From assembly GCA_038888155.1 (NCBI GenBank), contig JAWAJB010000037.1, forward strand, positions 1 through 10,568: a stretch of DNA of 10,568 nt, given 5' to 3'. Numbering within the stretch: position 1 is the stretch's first letter; each line of letters opens with the position of its first letter. The notes beneath the pieces were generated by a model. That model had not been told where the DNA came from. It ran no database searches and saw only the letters and a program-made list of their open reading frames with translations. A program made the translations under genes and the position numbers. Origin of the DNA: Desulfurococcaceae archaeon. Lineage in GTDB: Archaea; Thermoproteota; Thermoprotei_A; Sulfolobales; Desulfurococcaceae. Of this stretch, positions 968-10,568 are shown in pieces.

Positions 968-1012
968 TCACCGATAAAAATTGAAATATGAAAATCTAAA
1001 TATAAGATTTTC
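968..1012 (-). promoter_or_regulatory. Peroxiredoxin SD and BRE/TATA promoter, overlapped by an 8-bp inverted repeat
   Basis: Minus strand reads GAAAATC-TTATATTT-AGATTTTC...GGTGA-ATTT-ATG. GAAAATCT (990-997) and AGATTTTC (1005-1012) are perfect reverse complements. Confidence 0.55.
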
Positions 1013-1038
1013 CCTACGAAAACCCGGATTCCAAATTA

Positions 1039-3687
1039 TTGCACATATATCCAATAGATCCTGAGGGATATCATCTCGAAGAGTGGCACGCTAGGTTAAA
1101 GAGCCTTACAGTGGGTAAGGGTGGAGATATTCTCATTAGGCTCGATAAGCAGGAGATAAATATTCCAATACCAGTTAGCTACGACTACTCTGATAAATCA
1201 TTAAAGACTAAATTTAAGGATTTACATACCTTTGGGAGTTTTAAGAAGGACATTAAGGTTTTCTCTTGTAGAGGAAGATTGCCTGAAACTACCAACGTAA
1301 GTTTCTGCGAGTATCTTAGTTGGAATGAGAAGAATAAGGTAATGGCTCTCTTCGGTGGGAAGAACGGCGAAGTCATACGCCTCTATAGGCATCAACTTGA
1401 AGCGCTAAGAATACTTGAGGAGTCAGGACCAGAAAGGCTTTGCCTAATACTTGCATCCGGAATGGCTAGTGGAAAAACTGAAGTTGCCATTTTATATTTA
1501 TTGAAGATTTTCAAGAAGTTGGGAGTAGTAAAGCCTGGAGGACATATTGTAGTCGTTTATCCAACACGCGAACTATTAAGAAACTAGTACGCTAGATGGA
1601 AAACTTATTTTTATGGGCACATGACTTAGGTTATCTTTCGTCACGTGTTGAAGTAGCCAAATTATATGGAGAGCTGGCCCGTAGAGACCCGGTAGAATAT
1701 GAAAGGGAAAAAGAAAAACTTGAAAAATCATACGCATAGTGTTGACAACGGCTTCAACGCTTTTTGGATGGGCCAATAAATTAGATAGCGTTCTAAATTA
1801 TACTGTACCATCGGTTATGCTATTTGATGAAATACACTTTTACACAGCATTAGACTTAACGCTAGTAATGGAGCTACTCAATTTTATACTTAACAAATAT
1901 GGTGGACTAAACAAAATACTTATGTTCTCAGCAACTATAGGGGAGTTAAAGGAATTTGCTGCAAATGTTGAATTTTTCCTGAATGTAAAGACAGTCCCTG
2001 TCAGAGGGGAATCCCTCCAAGGACAGAAAACCACGTACTCAATTGACCTTTCTGAAAAAGATGATAAGCAGCAGGAAGCTGTAATTAATCAGATCTTGGA
2101 GAACTATGCTAAAAGGGGATTCTATGATAAGACGATAATTTTTGCTAAGGACAGAAATGAAGCCGAATCGCTGTACAGTAGACTTAGCCGATCTTTTAGG
2201 AGGATGGCATGCTTACATTTAGGAGATATGGACGAACTAGAGAGGAGAAAATCTGCAAGAGACTTTATGCTTGGAGAGCGTAAAGTCATAATAACCGTTA
2301 AAACTTTAGAGGTTGGAATAGATATAGGCGATGTTTCCAGAGTTATTCATCTAGGCCTTCCACCATCACTTAACGATTTCATGCAAAGAGAGGGGAGAAT
2401 TGGAAGAAGAGGACAGGAATGTGAATCCATTGTGATATTAAGGGATAGCGGCGAAGTTAAGAGGTTCAATAAGTGGATTGAGGAGTTAAGATATGAACCA
2501 ATCCATCTCTGATGAATTCATGTCAAAATTAGAATTTAATCCTTATTGTGAAGTAGCGTCACTAATAAAGCGGAAAATAAGAGCTGAACATAAGTTCCCG
2601 GAAATAATAAGCTTAGGTGGCTTTAATTTTCCATGTAAAGTTTATTGCGGCCTTACTTCGCTGCCAGTTGAATTAAATGGCAGGAAGGTAAAATATGTTT
2701 GGATTAATGATGTAATTTTCAGATATTTGCCATACAGCATTAGAATGGTGCGTGGAAAGCGCTGTATTGTTAAAGAAATAAAGCTTGCCGCTACAAAGGA
2801 AGGCTATAAACTGAAGAACATAGTTATGGAGGATCTTGAAGTATCTGACCTAGTAAAAGATGATCTTAAAAGGCAAGTTCATAAAACGACATCCTATGTT
2901 AAAGTAAATATAATTGCCGCTGACAGATTAAGTGAAAACCCCTATCAAACAATAATTGTAGAATATGAGCCACAATGCGTGAACTACGTGGCAAGGAGGG
3001 AAAAAGAGATACATGATGAGAAAAGTGGGCTTTCCCTAAAAATTCCAGTCTATTACATTATTAGCAGATATCCAGTCCAAAAAGATTTGAGGGGTGCTCT
3101 AAGAAAATACTCAAGAGATTTCACACGAGGTTTCAAACTAGAGTTAAAATCGCCAACGAAATAGTAGACGCATTTCCTTGGCTGCCTCTTGAGAGTAACC
3201 TGAATCTGCTTTTGGATCTTATTAAGACGCCTGTAGACGAATACGCTCATTTAGCCACCCACTTAATACTTAATCGGGTAATTGAGAAGGAAAAATGGAA
3301 TCCTCGCGATGTAGATCATTACGTTGATTCAATGATTAACTTGGATGAAGAATTAAAACAAAGATTAAAAGAAATGCTTAGCAGACCTGCCGACGAAAAT
3401 GAGAAGCGTAAAAGGCTCATTGAATCCTTACTACCAAAGATATCAATAACGGTCGTTGTCGGCAGTAAAGTTGATTTGCTCAAGGGCTTTGACTGGAACG
3501 AGATCAACTCAATGACTTAGAGAAATTAAGCAGTACCGATCTTGAATCAGAGGCGACATTTCCACGCTGTCCAATAAAACCGGATTTCGTTCGTGAGGAC
3601 CCAACAGCCCCTAGGATCATTAAAGGCTTATTTAAATTACTCTTAGAGGAATTAAAGAATACCGCGAATAAAGTCAAGACCTATTAG
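1039..3687 (+). pseudogene. SF2 DEAD/DEAH-box helicase, Hrq1/MrfA/DUF1998-like, probably 5'-truncated and disrupted
   Basis: Motifs occur in order across frames: Q LYRHQLEAL, I SGMASGKTE, Ia VYPTRELLRN, Ib IVLTTASTL, II DEIH, III SAT, IV TIIFAKDRNEAE, V TLEVGIDIG, VI QREGRIGRRG, then FNPY, AHLATHLIL and FPRCP. Lesions: TAG at 1585-1587 where Gln is expected, and frameshifts at ~1610, ~1730, ~2500, ~3148 and ~3508. Joins track ORFs 1039, 1739, 2493 and 3212 with untracked segments 1611-1739 and 3511-3687. No convincing start or SD. Confidence 0.88.
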
Positions 3688-3715
3688 GGAAGTTATATGG
3701 GATTTAAGTAGGGCC

Positions 3716-4240
3716 ATGCAATTGGGGCCAAAGATCATAGGCTGCACAAAAATGATAGAAACTGAACTTGCAAAGAAAATAAGTTCGATGGTCGCTGGGT
3801 GCTTTGAATTACTCACCGCGGAATTTCTCTCCCACAAAGTCGAATTAAGGGAAGTTGCTTATGACGAACCTATTTGTCCTCCATGTGTATATTGGAATGG
3901 AAGACTTCTCGAAGAAATGCCGGTGAGCGCGCCGAGCGGAGTAGCAGATATTGAAATATACTTAGACCTTAAAGAGACATGGATAGTTGATGTCACGTTA
4001 AGCTCGGATAGTAAAATCCAGCTGTTTGAGGTTAGAAGGTTAATGACACATAATCCATCATTAACAGTTTCGCCGAACGTTAAACGGATACTTGTTGCTC
4101 CAAGAATTAATGTGAAACATCAATATATCATTCCTATTGAAATAATGTCTGAGATTAAAAACTTAAGCTTAGAAAGACCAAAGATCATTAGTTACTGGGA
4201 TAAAGTGGAAACGAGGATCCGAGCCATCATAGGAAATTAA
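3716..4240 (+). CDS. AlwI/Nt.BstNBI-like restriction endonuclease catalytic domain (possibly the C-terminal domain of the helicase)
   Basis: GCFELLTAEFL...PVSAPSGVADIEI...WIVDVTLS...QLFEVRRLMTH resembles the AlwI-family P..G..DI / EVT / Q..E / H pattern. The frame is open from 3656, overlapping the helicase tail, so the true start is uncertain. Confidence 0.6.
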   Translation: MQLGPKIIGCTKMIETELAKKISSMVAGCFELLTAEFLSHKVELREVAYDEPICPPCVYWNGRLLEEMPVSAPSGVADIEIYLDLKETWIVDVTLSSDSKIQLFEVRRLMTHNPSLTVSPNVKRILVAPRINVKHQYIIPIEIMSEIKNLSLERPKIISYWDKVETRIRAIIGN

Positions 4241-4405
4241 CAATTCAAGAATATGCTCCCCCCATATTAGTCTCATCATTCTCCTCAGCACTAAAAGTGC
4301 TCATAAAATCTCTCACAAAAGAAATAAAACCCAACGCGCCTAGAAATATTTTGTGGAATTTCAATTGTGATAGAGCATGAAAGTTTTTAGGGGAAGTGCC
4401 AATTT

Positions 4406-4858
4406 ATGAGCGAGCAGACTAGGACTAAGCTTTTGGGGGATTTTGGCGAGTATCTGCTTGCGTGGCTTCTTAGGTCGAGGTTTGGTGTTAACCTAAGCCT
4501 AGTTAAAACTGAAGGAGTAGACCTACTTTGCGTGGACAAAGATGGGGCGCTCTTCCCAAAGAATGAAAACATAGCGATAAGCGTTAGAACCCGTGAACGA
4601 ACAAAAGAGAGGGTCTTGGATAATGTGAATGCTGACTGGAGCAAGATAGAGGAGGCTGCTGAGAGATGGAATGCTAAACCATACTTCGCCTATATAAGGA
4701 TCACACCCGAGAATGGAGAGATAAAAGTCTTCCTACTACCAGTAACTAAGGCAAAGACATATGGTAGAAACTTCAACGTCAAGAAAGCAGAGCTAGACCC
4801 ATCAAACATACTCTTCGAAATGAAATTCGAACAATATGTTCCTAAAAAGCAAAGTTAA
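4406..4858 (+). CDS. Small standalone PD-(D/E)XK restriction endonuclease-like protein
   Basis: GDFGEYLLAWLL (helix Glu), GVDLL (catalytic Asp) and IAISVRTR at the usual (E/Q)xK strand. Intact 150 aa with an ATG start. Confidence 0.7.
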   Translation: MSEQTRTKLLGDFGEYLLAWLLRSRFGVNLSLVKTEGVDLLCVDKDGALFPKNENIAISVRTRERTKERVLDNVNADWSKIEEAAERWNAKPYFAYIRITPENGEIKVFLLPVTKAKTYGRNFNVKKAELDPSNILFEMKFEQYVPKKQS

Positions 4859-5116: not shown

Positions 5117-6127
5117 TTAGATTTTTAGGTAATTGAGGATCCTATCGATTGTGCTCCTTAGGTCTGGGTTTGTGTAGAATGTTGCGTCTGGGTGGTTTGC
5201 TGGAACCCTATCCCTGCCATCCTGCTTTAGCATCCCCATCTTTTTTAGCTCTAGTATATTGACTGTTGTCTCCTCGATGCTTATGCCGAGCCCATTCGAT
5301 ATACTCCTTATCGAGACTCTATGTGAGCTACTCCTAACATACTTAAGGATAGTCAGCTGCTCTCTGCTCAGGTATGGTAGGCCGTCCTTGAACACCATAA
5401 GTCTCCTCTCCGGAAACCTTATCCACGCCTCGCTCGTTAGCTCCCTTGTAGCGATTATTGTTGCCACCTCATCCTCGGCCTTAAGCTCGCTTAAGTCCAC
5501 TTCGAAGTCCTCATCAAGCAGCTTTACAACTCCCATGTGCGGTGGGACTCGAATAATGTAGTATAGGCTTGAGTATCCAGACCAGAACGCGTAGAGATGT
5601 TCTCCATCACTCATTAAGAAGTTGAACCCGCCGTAGCCGGCGAACTCGTTAGCGGCACCCTCTATGCATTTAACCCTCTCATATATGCTGGCTCCCCTCC
5701 CAAGCTCCCTGAGTCGGTCCAGTATTAGGCAAAAGGCTTTTTCGGAGTCCGTCTCACCAATTGGTTCGTAGAATCTTGGGTTCGGCAGCTTTCCAATAAG
5801 CGTCCCATTATGCGCGAATACCCATTCCCTACCAAAGAGTTCCCTAACAAATGGATGAGTATTACGGTACGCTACTTCACCTTTAGAAGCCCACCTAACA
5901 TGGCTTATAACAATCTTACCCCTAACAAAATTAGCAGACTTTAAAAATGAAGCCATAGTGCTGTTCACAGAGGGATTAGGCTCCTTAATCAAACATATAG
6001 AACGCCCATCCGGGTAGAAGGCGACACCCCAACCATCCCTATGAACCCTACCCCTAGCCAGAAAACCACGCCAAGAAAAGCCAATACTAATAGACCTATT
6101 ACATGAGAAACCAAATAATTCACACAT
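5117..6127 (-). CDS. Class II glutamine amidotransferase-like Ntn hydrolase (YafJ/EgtC/Dug3, GATase_4) with a C-terminal winged-helix extension
   Basis: N-terminal nucleophile MCELFG, HRDGWGVAFY, SHVRWAS, NTHPF, FAHNG, GETDSE, NFLMSDG and IATRELT. Then ~80 extra residues, LSREQLTILKYV...SIRSISNGLGISIEETTVNILELKKMGML. GGAGG SD at 6134-6138. Confidence 0.92.
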   Translation of the reverse strand: MCELFGFSCNRSISIGFSWRGFLARGRVHRDGWGVAFYPDGRSICLIKEPNPSVNSTMASFLKSANFVRGKIVISHVRWASKGEVAYRNTHPFVRELFGREWVFAHNGTLIGKLPNPRFYEPIGETDSEKAFCLILDRLRELGRGASIYERVKCIEGAANEFAGYGGFNFLMSDGEHLYAFWSGYSSLYYIIRVPPHMGVVKLLDEDFEVDLSELKAEDEVATIIATRELTSEAWIRFPERRLMVFKDGLPYLSREQLTILKYVRSSSHRVSIRSISNGLGISIEETTVNILELKKMGMLKQDGRDRVPANHPDATFYTNPDLRSTIDRILNYLKI

Positions 6128-6926: not shown

Positions 6927-7118
6927 AAAGAAGAAGTTTTAAAGACATGGCTTAAGGCATTTGGAGTGCAGGTGGTTAGATTAAGGTTATCCGGCCACTA
7001 CCTACCATATCAATTCCGTAACATAATTGAGACTTTGAAATCAAAAGATATAATTCCGCTACATACAGAAGAAGCTGAATCCACGAAAAAGATATTTCAA
7101 AAATTTATGCATCAGTAA
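6927..7118 (+). pseudogene. C-terminal remnant of an RNase J-like beta-CASP metallo-beta-lactamase nuclease
   Basis: Untracked frame KEEVLKTWLKAFGVQVVRLRLSGHYLPYQFRNIIETLKSKDIIPLHTEEAESTKKIFQKFMHQ*. SGH (motif B) and IPLHTE (motif C) have the typical spacing. The N-terminal MBL core is absent. Confidence 0.82.
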
Positions 7119-7182
7119 ATTTATTGCGCAAAATTGGGGCTGGGGGGACATTTTAAGGGAGTAGAAGACGGATATTCTTAGC

Positions 7183-7328
7183 GCTCTTTTTGGAGAGAAA
7201 GGTGGTGAAGTTCTACGTCTCTATAGACATCAGCTTGAAGCGTTAAGAACCTGAGCTCAGAAAACCAAAGGGACATCAGTTATATGAAAGAAGGCAGAGA
7301 CAAGATTCGAGCCATGATACGAAATTAA
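7183..7328 (+). repeat. Internally deleted, diverged second copy of the helicase-nuclease module
   Basis: 7183-7248 matches 1345-1410 (19/22 aa and 51/66 nt by hand count). 7248-7328 matches 4160-4240 (12/26 aa identical, same length, stop aligned). Confidence 0.85.
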
Positions 7329-8799: not shown

Positions 8800-9483
8800 T
8801 TAGCGGTTATCCCTTTTCAAGACCTTCTCAGATAAAGATAGAAGGCTGCCAAGCATGAAACTTAAGGCGTGTCCAGGAACATGGACCCTTTTTCCACTCT
8901 GCATAAATGGTTGATAGAGAAAACTAATCATAATGAGGAGGAAGAGCGTGAAAAACACCAATGAAAATGCCAATAGTGATGTCAAGGATACCTTCTTCAT
9001 TGTTGTTGAGGTTAAGCTTACAGAGTTGGATATCAAATAGATGGAGTAACCAAAAAGACAGTATACCGATATTGAGAAGCCGCAAATAGTGAGGCTTCAT
9101 AGAATGACGACGATTGTATAAATAGATATAAAAATGGGGCCATGATTAAAATGACAAAATACATGAGTAGAAAGCACTTTCTGCTACCTTCAAGTAGCAT
9201 TGTTAGAAATGCAAAAAAGAAGATAAAAGATGATATTACCAAGTAAATGATCCAGCTCAAAATGTATGTATTTTGCAGTAAGCAATGGCCATGGTGTAAT
9301 GTTCTTTGGATGAAGGGCTAAAAGACTCTTGATATCGCTGGGAAGCCGGAAAATACTTAACAGAACCAGAGGAACCACCAACATCATTAGTAAAGAGTCC
9401 TTTCTCTTAAAGGACAAGAAATTTTCCTTAGGTCTTTGTAAAATAACATTAAGCTTTGGCGTTTTATCCATAATGCTAGCCAT
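8800..9483 (-). pseudogene. Rhomboid-family intramembrane serine protease, frameshifted
   Basis: Three track ORFs join into one gene. PWPLLTAKYIHFELDHLLGN is the L1/TM2 H..HxxxN motif. Shifts at ~9215 (T6 run) and ~9095 lead to ICGFSISVY (catalytic GxS, Ser codon 9073-9075), in frame with VHVPGHALSFMLG (catalytic His codon 8869-8871). Confidence 0.78.
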
Positions 9484-9559
9484 ACATTGGAAGTTTCTTA
9501 TCATTTGCACTCTTCCGCTTTTCGTCAACGAAGTATATTTCTACGTCGTCCAGCCACAG

Positions 9560-10297
9560 CTCATACTCAGAGCAGCCTAGCTTCTCCCTAAGAAACTCTA
9601 GGCTCATTATGTCGCCAACCTTAAGCGCCTTTATAACCTCATCCCTAACTGCCTGGAGCTTGGACGCGCTGAATTATCGGCGTAGACTTCTTGGCGAAGA
9701 TCTTCTCAGTCCTCTCAAAGGCTTCTGGTATGGCTTGTTCCTTAAGGTTTAGATGGGTCGATCCAGGTGATAATGTAGCCCTCCCTAAAAGGCGACTCGC
9801 GTCCCTCACTCCTATAACCCCTAATGTAGACCAGGCCCCTACGCTCAAGTCTTCTAACATTAGACATGACGTCCGGCGGCCTAACCCCCTATCAGCGAGA
9901 AGATCCGCAATCTCACGCGCAAAGAAGGCCTTATCACGATCCTCCTCAAGAAACCTGTAAATTATCTGCGCCTTACTCTCAGTCCTACCATTAGCCCGGG
10001 AGGCAGTAAACCCAACAAACCTAATACTGTTAACTATAGCTTCGCCACAACCCTTAGGCGCAACAACATACAGAAAATATTTCCTAAGGTTTCTCGACGC
10101 CCCAGCCCTACCCTTAAACATCTGCTCAGACTCCATGGACGGCTTCTCAGACCGTAAGACTAGGCTCCCCCTCCAAAGCCTATATAAGCAGCCCTCAAGC
10201 CCAAACCAGTAGAGACGACAATATCCCTATAAGACCGCGGAACACCATCAGAGAGAACCCTCAAAACAGCCTCAACAGTCCGACCAACCAAACCCAA
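9560..10297 (-). pseudogene. Multi winged-helix protein, frameshifted and 3'-truncated
   Basis: Reconstruction across frames: TVEAVLRVLSDGVPRSYRDIVVSTGLG / YRLWRGSLVLRSEKPSMESEQMFKGRAG...SKAQIIYRFLEEDRDKAFFAREIADLL / GVRPPDVMSNVRRLERRGLVYIRGY...EGYIITWIDP / KEQAIPEAFERT / AVRDEVIKALKVGDIMSLEFLREKLGCSEYE. Shifts at ~10180, ~9887, ~9742 and ~9660. TTG start candidate at 10297. Confidence 0.7.
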
Positions 10298-10326
10298 ACA
10301 TCAACAATAAAATAGTGTTGGCCAAA

Positions 10327-10335
10327 TATTTAAAA
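10327..10335 (-). promoter_or_regulatory. TATA box for the wHTH pseudogene (near-leaderless)
   Basis: Minus strand TTTTAAATA, ~30 nt upstream of the TTG at 10297. Confidence 0.45.
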
Positions 10336-10441
10336 GCGTGGGGTTCAAACCGAAAAGAAAAATAGAAACTCACACAAAAACAAAGCAAGAATTAAGCTCG
10401 TTTCTTCCCGAAAACAGCCAAAATGAAATGAGTAAAAGATA

Positions 10442-10518
10442 TGGTGCCGGGGGTGGGATTTGAACCCACGGCGGTCCGGTCTTCAGCCGGATGCTCTCCC
10501 AGTCTGAGCTACCCCGGC
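10442..10518 (-). tRNA. tRNA-Phe: tRNA-Phe (anticodon GAA), intronless, CCA encoded
   Basis: The reverse complement folds fully: GCCGGGG TA GCTC AGACTGGGA GAGC A TCCGG CT-GAA-GA CCGGA CCGCC GTGGG TTCAAAT CCCAC CCCCGGC A CCA (77 nt). Confidence 0.98.
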
Positions 10519-10535
10519 TAAAATTATTATCGGAG

Positions 10536-10558
10536 TATTTAATTTATTTACTTTTCTC
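10536..10558 (-). promoter_or_regulatory. Probable tRNA promoter (purine-rich BRE plus TATA-like box)
   Basis: Minus strand GAGAAAAG-TAAATAAA-TTAAATA, 18-40 nt upstream of the mature 5' end. Confidence 0.5.
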
Positions 10559-10568
10559 TCTTACAACT

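Follow-up and report, generated by a model that had tools for sequence, protein, structure and literature searches.

The stretch of DNA analysed here, referred to below as the window, is the whole of a 10,568-base contig belonging to a 2.42-Mb, 134-contig bin named Desulfurococcaceae archaeon. Positions 1019-4240 of its plus strand hold what we take, with a probability of roughly 0.6, to be a pseudogene version of an operon conserved in archaea, in which a YprA/MrfA-like helicase is paired with a separate PD-(D/E)xK nuclease guided by the translocase, and which is likelier to act in defence than in repair. An earlier inspection of the letters alone (the sequence-only reading) had described a helicase broken into several frames and coupled or fused to an AlwI-type nuclease. 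The breakage is real: no long open reading frame (ORF) runs along the plus strand from 1006 to 4240, and in its place stands a chain of seven overlapping open frames (Table 1), six of them pieces of the helicase and the last the nuclease frame, which is open at 3656-4240 and overlaps the helicase end at 3687, as had been noticed. The full set of superfamily 2 (SF2) motifs that had been read there is also present on that strand, carried by the first three frames. A Pfam scan of the pieces returned Helicase_C (E 9.3e-20) and weak DEAD and ResIII matches, and nothing in the last four pieces.

Helicase and nuclease are separate, slightly overlapping genes. Relatives were sought among longer proteins with the 224-residue middle piece of the helicase, and nine were found. 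Six of these (P0003-P0008) are intact helicases of 1072-1227 residues, 34-51% identical over the 224 residues, and the C-termini that were read (P0003, P0004, and P0006) lie at or just past the equivalent of position 3684. Two other relatives, each of 398 residues and 99% (P0001) and 89% identical, span MNQSIS (2493) to NKVKTY (3684); their sources assign them to a Nitrososphaerota and a Bathyarchaeia metagenome-assembled genome (MAG). Because the intact helicases end at the equivalent of 3684, the helicase of the window stops at 3687 and the following frame is not part of it. From the other side, an exhaustive HMMER search with the frame 3656-4240 among 1.84 billion proteins gave 14 representatives, four of them at E<=1e-30. 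The four best homologues are 192-196 residues long and their first residue aligns to the codon at 3659, so the two genes overlap by 29 nt (3659-3687) in the window. The longest protein matched (P0020, 3320 residues) aligned over only 23 residues at a chance-level E of 1.4e-4, and no homologue with helicase and nuclease in one ORF was met in the protein searches or in the metagenome loci.

The helicase of this lineage is, moreover, naturally split. We scanned metagenome contigs with the nuclease alignment, obtained 19 loci, and located the helicase in them by tblastn. It is a single ORF of 986-1231 residues in nine loci and two overlapping ORFs in L013, L015, and the partial L012 and L029; the window's lineage belongs to this split group, with a motor ORF of about 800 residues and a tail ORF of 398-417 residues. 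The overlap of the two, from ATG 2493 to TGA 2512, is common to the window, L012, L013, and L015, and GAGGAG (2480-2485) stands 7 nt before the ATG of the tail ORF. For motor, tail, and nuclease alike, the ratio of nonsynonymous to synonymous substitution rates (dN/dS) among the intact L012, L013, and L015 lies at 0.16-0.25, apart from 0.55 in one pair for which just 72 codons were compared; the split form is therefore maintained by selection. A programmed frameshift at the motor/tail junction was considered and rejected in favour of a true split, given the tail's own ATG and GAGGAG and an overlap kept in four loci. In L016 (1764-5385) the helicase occupies three frames (91, 338, and 747 residues) with a break just before RecA1, elsewhere than the split of the window's subclade; this may be another broken copy or a natural split.

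The lesions of the window copy were called against L012, L013, and L015, to which it is 90-93% identical in nucleotides. Homology to these relatives begins at 1019, which corresponds to about codon 304 of P0003, and some 300 codons of the 5′ end are gone. A 2-nt deletion lies at 1050 and 1-nt deletions at 1614, 1731, 3156, and 3503, at 1585 the CAG of all three relatives is replaced by TAG, and at 3659 their ATG, the nuclease start codon, by ATA. The remark that the nuclease lacks a clear Shine-Dalgarno sequence holds for the ATG at 3716 but not for the family's start at 3659, which has GAGGA 8 nt upstream. The window copy is a pseudogene and cannot work; its frames had been taken as repairable, but the 5′ end and the nuclease start codon have been lost as well. 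A different genetic code was rejected as the reason for TAG 1585, since the relatives read CAG at that site and the remaining breaks are indels. The dN/dS of the window copy against its relatives is 0.17-0.40, which is not clearly raised, and we conclude from this that the inactivation is recent.

As for the kind of helicase, the top solved match of the family profile is YprA/MrfA (6znp, E 2.1e-18), over both RecA domains. No helicase or nuclease orthologue was found in 40 relatives of the bin; the best non-self match of the helicase in the bin (E 4.4e-17), and several of the best in the 40 relatives, are ORFs of about 760 residues that carry an MZB domain, and reverse-gyrase-sized ORFs score about equally well. 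For the tail we built a model from a 15-row alignment of tails (pLDDT 78.1, on the predicted local distance difference test). Foldseek placed MrfA first (E 1.5e-6, probability 1.00), and so did VIA-align (Z 9.3, root-mean-square deviation (rmsd) 6.1, 218 residues, with residues 54-386 of the model on MrfA 495-749), followed by DrmB of DISARM (Z 6.6, rmsd 5.7, 257 residues). The domains of MrfA are given as OB 491-556, CON 557-630, and MZB 631-749 in the available part of its description (PMC7797055), and the match, covering 495-749, therefore spans the whole canopy. A profile search of the PDB with the tail alignment gave a best E of 0.12, which is not significant, and PADLOC and NCBIfam had no match for either the tail or the nuclease.

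The DUF1998-like tail of the sequence-only reading thus finds support in the predicted fold, with MrfA as the top match, but none in Pfam for the window pieces. Its HxxxH is present in HLATHLILN (3248-3274), and the single cysteine observed where the zinc cluster is expected is that of FPRCP (3559-3573). Across the 15 aligned tails the MZB-like part, which begins at about residue 237 of P0001, has one invariant cysteine (C360), and the four-cysteine Zn2+ site of the YprA family is absent from it; C347, C349, C353, and C356 are invariant in canonical archaeal YprA tails. According to the portion of a recent YprA census available to us, Dpd helicases have also lost the four-cysteine cluster, and outside DISARM a separate gene sporadically encodes the canopy (10.1101/2025.09.15.676423); neither feature, then, excludes a YprA origin. 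Ahead of the helicase core lies an N-terminal region of 300-420 residues, for which ESM Atlas scores of 0.76-0.78 (all below 0.9) and a Pfam E of 0.072 offer a lead toward a carboxypeptidase-regulatory or Ig-like make-up.

The nuclease model, based on a 10-row alignment, has a pLDDT of 93.9. Its first match is the small subunit of R.BspD6I (2p14, 186 residues), with a Foldseek E of 1.3e-4 and, by VIA-align, a Z of 10.7 and an rmsd of 3.3 over 131 residues. Next come residues 366-544 of Nt.BspD6I (2ewf; Z 10.1, rmsd 4.2, 148 residues) and FokI (Z 8.1). The AlwI-type assignment made at the outset accordingly stands as far as the predicted fold goes, with 2p14 as the top match, but Pfam lends it no support for the window's protein. 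Kept in the homologues are E50, W79-N80-G81, D97-I98-E99, D/E111-x-T113, E124, and H131, and the alignment of 10 homologues, in which E50, D97, E99, D/E111, and E124 are invariant or nearly so, makes these five the candidate catalytic residues. Active-site mutants of BspD6I named in the titles of PDB entries are D456A and E418A. The nuclease is without a DNA-binding domain of its own, and the BspD6I small subunit is described, in the available part of PMC3017599, as active only in complex with the large subunit.

The two genes travel together. The helicase lies immediately upstream of the nuclease, with an overlap of a few bases, in 16 of the 19 metagenome loci; two of the three exceptions (L014 and L030) begin at a contig edge inside the nuclease, and the third (L028) is a truncated relic that holds only the first 69 nuclease codons. 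The same order was found in one further locus among species-representative genomes (L031, a Bathyarchaeia MAG), which confirms the coupling first proposed. Taking metagenome and genome loci together, the nuclease stands directly behind the helicase in 17 of the 18 that have upstream sequence. The neighbours of the 19 loci, in flanks of up to 8 kb, were scanned by Pfam (24 ORFs) and PADLOC (48 of 62 ORFs). No methyltransferase, AlwI-type large subunit, or sequence-reading subunit was found among these, and Pfam and NCBIfam scans likewise bear out the statement that the window has no methyltransferase. Four of the 48 ORFs had a PADLOC match: prokaryotic Argonaute (pAgo) in L017 (E 2.9e-89) and L021 (E 3.4e-66), a type I restriction R subunit in L018, and an SNF2/NOV_C helicase in L015, where an MBL-fold protein is also encoded. 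Other neighbours are a Piwi ORF cluster in L023, an Mrr_cat/TPR protein in L019, and transposases near L022 and L027. The pAgo genes lie one or two genes upstream of the module (L017 1250-3256, L021 1547-2896, L023 2067-4073), and a family-less ORF of 413-445 residues precedes pAgo in L017 and L023. L013 and L015 have different contexts, their homology beginning only about 19 nt before the helicase start. The nuclease occurs in one of 351 genomes of the bin's class, namely the bin itself, a count that is a lower bound given the narrow pattern used for the genome scan. The stretch is present in 16 sequencing runs from seven studies, all of hot-spring metagenomes.

On these grounds we propose how an intact module might work. 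By analogy with MrfA, the motor would load on single-stranded DNA and translocate 3′ to 5′ under the canopy; it would carry or activate the nuclease, which, by analogy with the BspD6I small subunit, may need to be docked to its partner before it can cut. As no methyltransferase is linked, the DNA attacked, foreign or aberrant, would be recognised from its structure rather than its methylation. We predicted a complex of the helicase (from RecA1 to the end) with the nuclease, which scored 0.36 (individual runs 0.36, 0.50, and 0.08), with 0.00 for the best of three controls; the runs share at least 15% of their contacts, and the partner pLDDT is 83 or higher. The mark applied to such predictions is reached by 116 of 157 solved complexes and two of 215 mismatched pairs; at scores of 0.60 or less it is reached by 18 of the 157 solved complexes and by both passing mismatches. 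A bolder version of the proposal, which we put forward only tentatively, is that intact members form an unnamed archaeal defence class in which a YprA-type translocase has replaced the sequence-reading large subunit of a BspD6I-like heterodimer. The bare catalytic subunit might then be unable to cut unless docked on the motor as it moves, the choice of foreign DNA would rest on structure (free 3′ ends, replication intermediates) with no methylation mark, and a variable Ig-like N-terminal array might serve as a sensor.

Several observations weigh against the proposed module and its role. Pfam RE_AlwI matches one of 10 nuclease homologues (E 0.0014) and not the window's protein at E<=10, and a PDB profile search with the nuclease alignment had no matches at E<=10. 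Pfam PF09369 is absent from the window pieces (E<=0.1) and from P0001, P0003, P0004, and P0006 (E<=1), and comparing the tail profile by hhalign with canonical archaeal YprA tails gave an E of 0.23, which is not significant. The fold assignments of tail and nuclease, both from models, rest on shallow alignments (15 and 10 rows), the complex prediction hints only weakly at binding between helicase and nuclease, and it is from context, folds, and analogy that we infer what the module does. The defence context is thin, with 44 of 48 neighbour ORFs lacking a PADLOC match and the loci being partly kin. The module was not found on viral contigs (0 of 12 pattern matches confirmed), a result that says little either way. 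Finally, MrfAB, itself a pair of a YprA helicase and a nuclease, is a repair system.

This last point leads to the possibility that the module is a DNA-repair pair like MrfAB and clears lesions or crosslinks from the DNA of a thermophile. Core and tail alike have MrfA as their best solved relative, and in the available portion of the YprA census one branch, with partner nucleases, is assigned to repair (10.1101/2025.09.15.676423). The same portion of the census gives MrfB as a 3′-5′ exonuclease and not a PD-(D/E)xK enzyme (10.1101/2025.09.15.676423). We nevertheless favour defence, because the bin and 24 of the 40 relatives already have a canonical YprA (about 760 residues, with MZB), and the module is rare (one of 351 genomes of the class), associated with islands (it lies beside pAgo, type I R, or transposase genes in several loci), and quick to decay, with two dead copies in the window. 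Repair is, in our judgement, unlikely. A mobile-element function, as a helicase-nuclease for replication, transfer, or anti-defence of a plasmid or integrated element, would fit the different contexts of L013 and L015, the transposases near L022 and L027, and the patchy spread; with none on viral contigs and no integrase, replication, or conjugation genes among the scanned neighbours, we regard it as improbable.

We also asked how far the broken frames could be sequencing or assembly errors in genes that are really intact. The five indels are without exception short deletions, short homopolymers adjoin some of them, and the bin is of mixed quality (6.4% contamination, and 2.42 Mb against 0.9-1.5 Mb in the genus). 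Against this, not every lesion is an indel: CAG to TAG and ATG to ATA are substitutions, and the 5′ end is truncated. In an independent assembly, Logan's, the contig of run X1 (27x) is identical to the window over the whole 3.3 kb (1000-4300), although X1 is possibly the source sample, so that it checks the assembler and not the reads; a contig of run X3, from another study, is identical over 1450-1704 and shares the TAG and the 1614 deletion. Run X2 is a mix of broken and intact forms, run X5, from a third study, has every intact state at 40-71x, and the contigs of both depart from the window before 1019. Frames of at least 150 residues make up 79% of the genome; the figure is 80-86% for the five largest contigs and 68% for this one, and the high coverage of the genome shows that the assembly is not generally frameshifted. 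Artefact is, on this evidence, a very improbable explanation. More doubtful still is a degenerate type IIS-like restriction-modification system with its methyltransferase and DNA-reading subunit outside the window: the closest folds of the nuclease are indeed type IIS catalytic domains, but the constant partner is the helicase, and neither a methyltransferase nor an AlwI-type large subunit is among the neighbours scanned by Pfam (24) or PADLOC (48). The single helicase-nuclease protein of about 1,060 residues or more that one further frameshift would restore is hardly credible despite the overlap of the two frames by 29-32 nt, for the intact helicases that were read (P0003, P0004, and P0006) stop near 3684, the nuclease homologues start at 3659, and 17 loci have separate, overlapping ORFs in different frames.

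Table 1. Features of the window, with positions counted from its first base.
Feature	Position	Strand	Remarks
Chain of open frames	1006-1587, 1596-1739, 1724-2512, 2490-3164, 3065-3520, 3493-3687, 3656-4240	+	
Helicase motor ORF, first piece	1019-1587	+	Frame 1; 5′-truncated; ends at nonsense TAG 1585-1587
Q motif	1381-1395	+	Motor ORF, first piece
Motif I (ASGMASGKT)	1453-1479	+	Motor ORF, first piece
Motif Ia	1558-1584	+	Motor ORF, first piece
Helicase motor ORF, second piece	1588-1739	+	Frame 0; entry via 1-nt deletion 1614, exit via 1731
Helicase motor ORF, third piece	1724-2512	+	Frame 2; natural stop TGA 2510-2512
Motif Ib (TTAST)		+	Motor ORF, third piece
DEIH motif	1826-1837	+	Motor ORF, third piece
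SAT motif	1928-1936	+	Motor ORF, third piece
Motif VI (QREGRIGRRG)	2384-2413	+	RecA2; motor ORF, third piece
Tail (canopy) ORF of split helicase	2493-3687	+	OB-CON-MZB(DUF1998)-like; 398 residues if intact
Tail ORF pieces	2490-3164, 3065-3520, 3493-3687	+	Broken at 3156 and 3503
Nuclease gene	3659-4240	+	193 residues; predicted PD-(D/E)xK, AlwI / R.BspD6I small-subunit kind
150-residue ORF	4406-4858	+	Between nuclease and glutamine amidotransferase gene
Class-II glutamine amidotransferase	5117-6127	-	GATase_4, E 2.7e-80
Relic of second copy of module	6927-7328	+	More decayed than 1019-4240
Four overlapping short ORFs	8800-9528	-	78, 58, 75, and 112 residues, different frames
163-residue ORF	9645-10136	-	Family-less
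tRNA-Phe	10442-10518	-	Sole Rfam match

The window holds the relic of a second copy of the module. Its first part (6927-7165) is 90% identical in nucleotides to L015 2744-2987, the 3′ end of an MBL-fold gene together with the region before the helicase, and preserves the last 63 codons of that gene with 92% amino acid identity to L015, where the MBL-fold gene directly precedes an intact helicase. A scrap of helicase follows at 7183-7250 (LYRHQLEALR; 22 codons, 77.6% nucleotide identity to 1345-1411), joined to the end of a nuclease at 7243-7328 (the last 28 codons, 73.9% identity to 4155-4240). Two dead copies within 6.3 kb show how fast such modules decay.

The rest of the contig can be described briefly. 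The 150-residue ORF downstream of the nuclease has no Pfam, PADLOC, or NCBIfam family; at that place L013 has a spacer of 436 nt and the window one of 812 nt, with no blastn match between them, which looks like an insertion or replacement. The glutamine amidotransferase gene adjoins the module in L013 too, and its product has a C-terminal extension weakly resembling a Csa3-type helix-turn-helix (NCBIfam cas_HTH, E 3e-4). The four short, hydrophobic-rich ORFs on the minus strand have the look of one more frameshifted gene, whose product may be a membrane protein. GC content, 0.29-0.46 elsewhere in the contig, rises to 0.46-0.50 in 9501-10568. The whole contig is possibly mis-binned, or else accessory: the bin exceeds in size the 16 same-genus genomes that set the 0.9-1.5 Mb range and has a contig GC of 0.35-0.53, the glutamine amidotransferase gene has a match, only 35% identical, in one of 15 same-genus genomes, and the sources of the module's nearest homologues give them as Bathyarchaeia or Nitrososphaerota.

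Finally, we compared the module with known systems. DISARM, Dpd, and Druantia, and likewise the recently proposed ARMADA, BRIGADE, and TALON, are all driven by YprA-family helicases, and we rate the module as one more such helicase with a new nuclease partner, not as a new category. What the clade adds is that partner, a type IIS-like catalytic subunit devoid of a DNA-reading domain, together with a second case each of zinc-site loss, arrived at independently, and of a split between motor and canopy, all in hot-spring archaea, a setting where few defence systems are known. Its intact relatives (three ORFs in L013 and L015, two in L026) offer a small testable system for the control by a translocase of a nuclease that lacks such a domain. 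The view that the arrangement matches no named system has held up: PADLOC recognises in the homologues the helicase core only, and generically (SngC 7e-29, BrxHI 2.4e-25, Cas3, DpdF, and DruE). Full-text literature, judged by titles and the starts of abstracts, yielded no system joining a helicase to RE_AlwI and nothing joining AlwI with DUF1998. The terms 'AlwI', 'FokI', and 'BspD6I' are absent from the available text of the YprA census and its four supplements, one of them incomplete (10.1101/2025.09.15.676423). In an incomplete copy of the census table the MAG prefix of P0001 appears once, for another gene listed as 'DISARM-like helicase', and that of P0002 does not appear, which is weak evidence.

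With MrfA/YprA of Bacillus subtilis (6znp) the module shares the closest SF2 core, the predicted OB-CON-MZB order, and a nuclease gene after the helicase; it differs in lacking a Pfam DUF1998 match and the four-cysteine site and in having the additional 300-420-residue N-terminal region. Its partner is predicted to be a PD-(D/E)xK endonuclease, whereas MrfB of MrfAB is a 3′-5′ exonuclease, and it is rare and patchy. DISARM resembles it in that DrmA and DrmB (7s9w), like the motor and the canopy-like module in the window's subclade, are adjacent separate genes followed by a nuclease gene. The DISARM nuclease DrmC is, however, of the PLD type, no DrmD, DrmE, or methyltransferase is among the scanned neighbours, and most members of the family are unsplit, the split being found in four loci and the window; the PADLOC DrmA model matches the core of only one homologue (E 2.4e-12), below BrxHI and SngC. 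The Dpd, BRIGADE, ARMADA, and TALON systems share, as far as the available descriptions go, the theme of a nuclease fused to a YprA-like helicase or encoded downstream of it, but the neighbours scanned here include no 7-deazaguanine genes, BrxHII/PglX, TPR-CSD/TBP, Vsr, or PLD. The small subunit of R.BspD6I/BstNBI, in turn, is of similar size (186 against 193 residues) and likewise a catalytic domain that stands alone, with its gene immediately behind that of its partner. Sequence similarity to it is below the Pfam threshold (AlwI family, PF09491); in the module the partner is a helicase and not a site-specific nickase, and no methyltransferase is linked to it.

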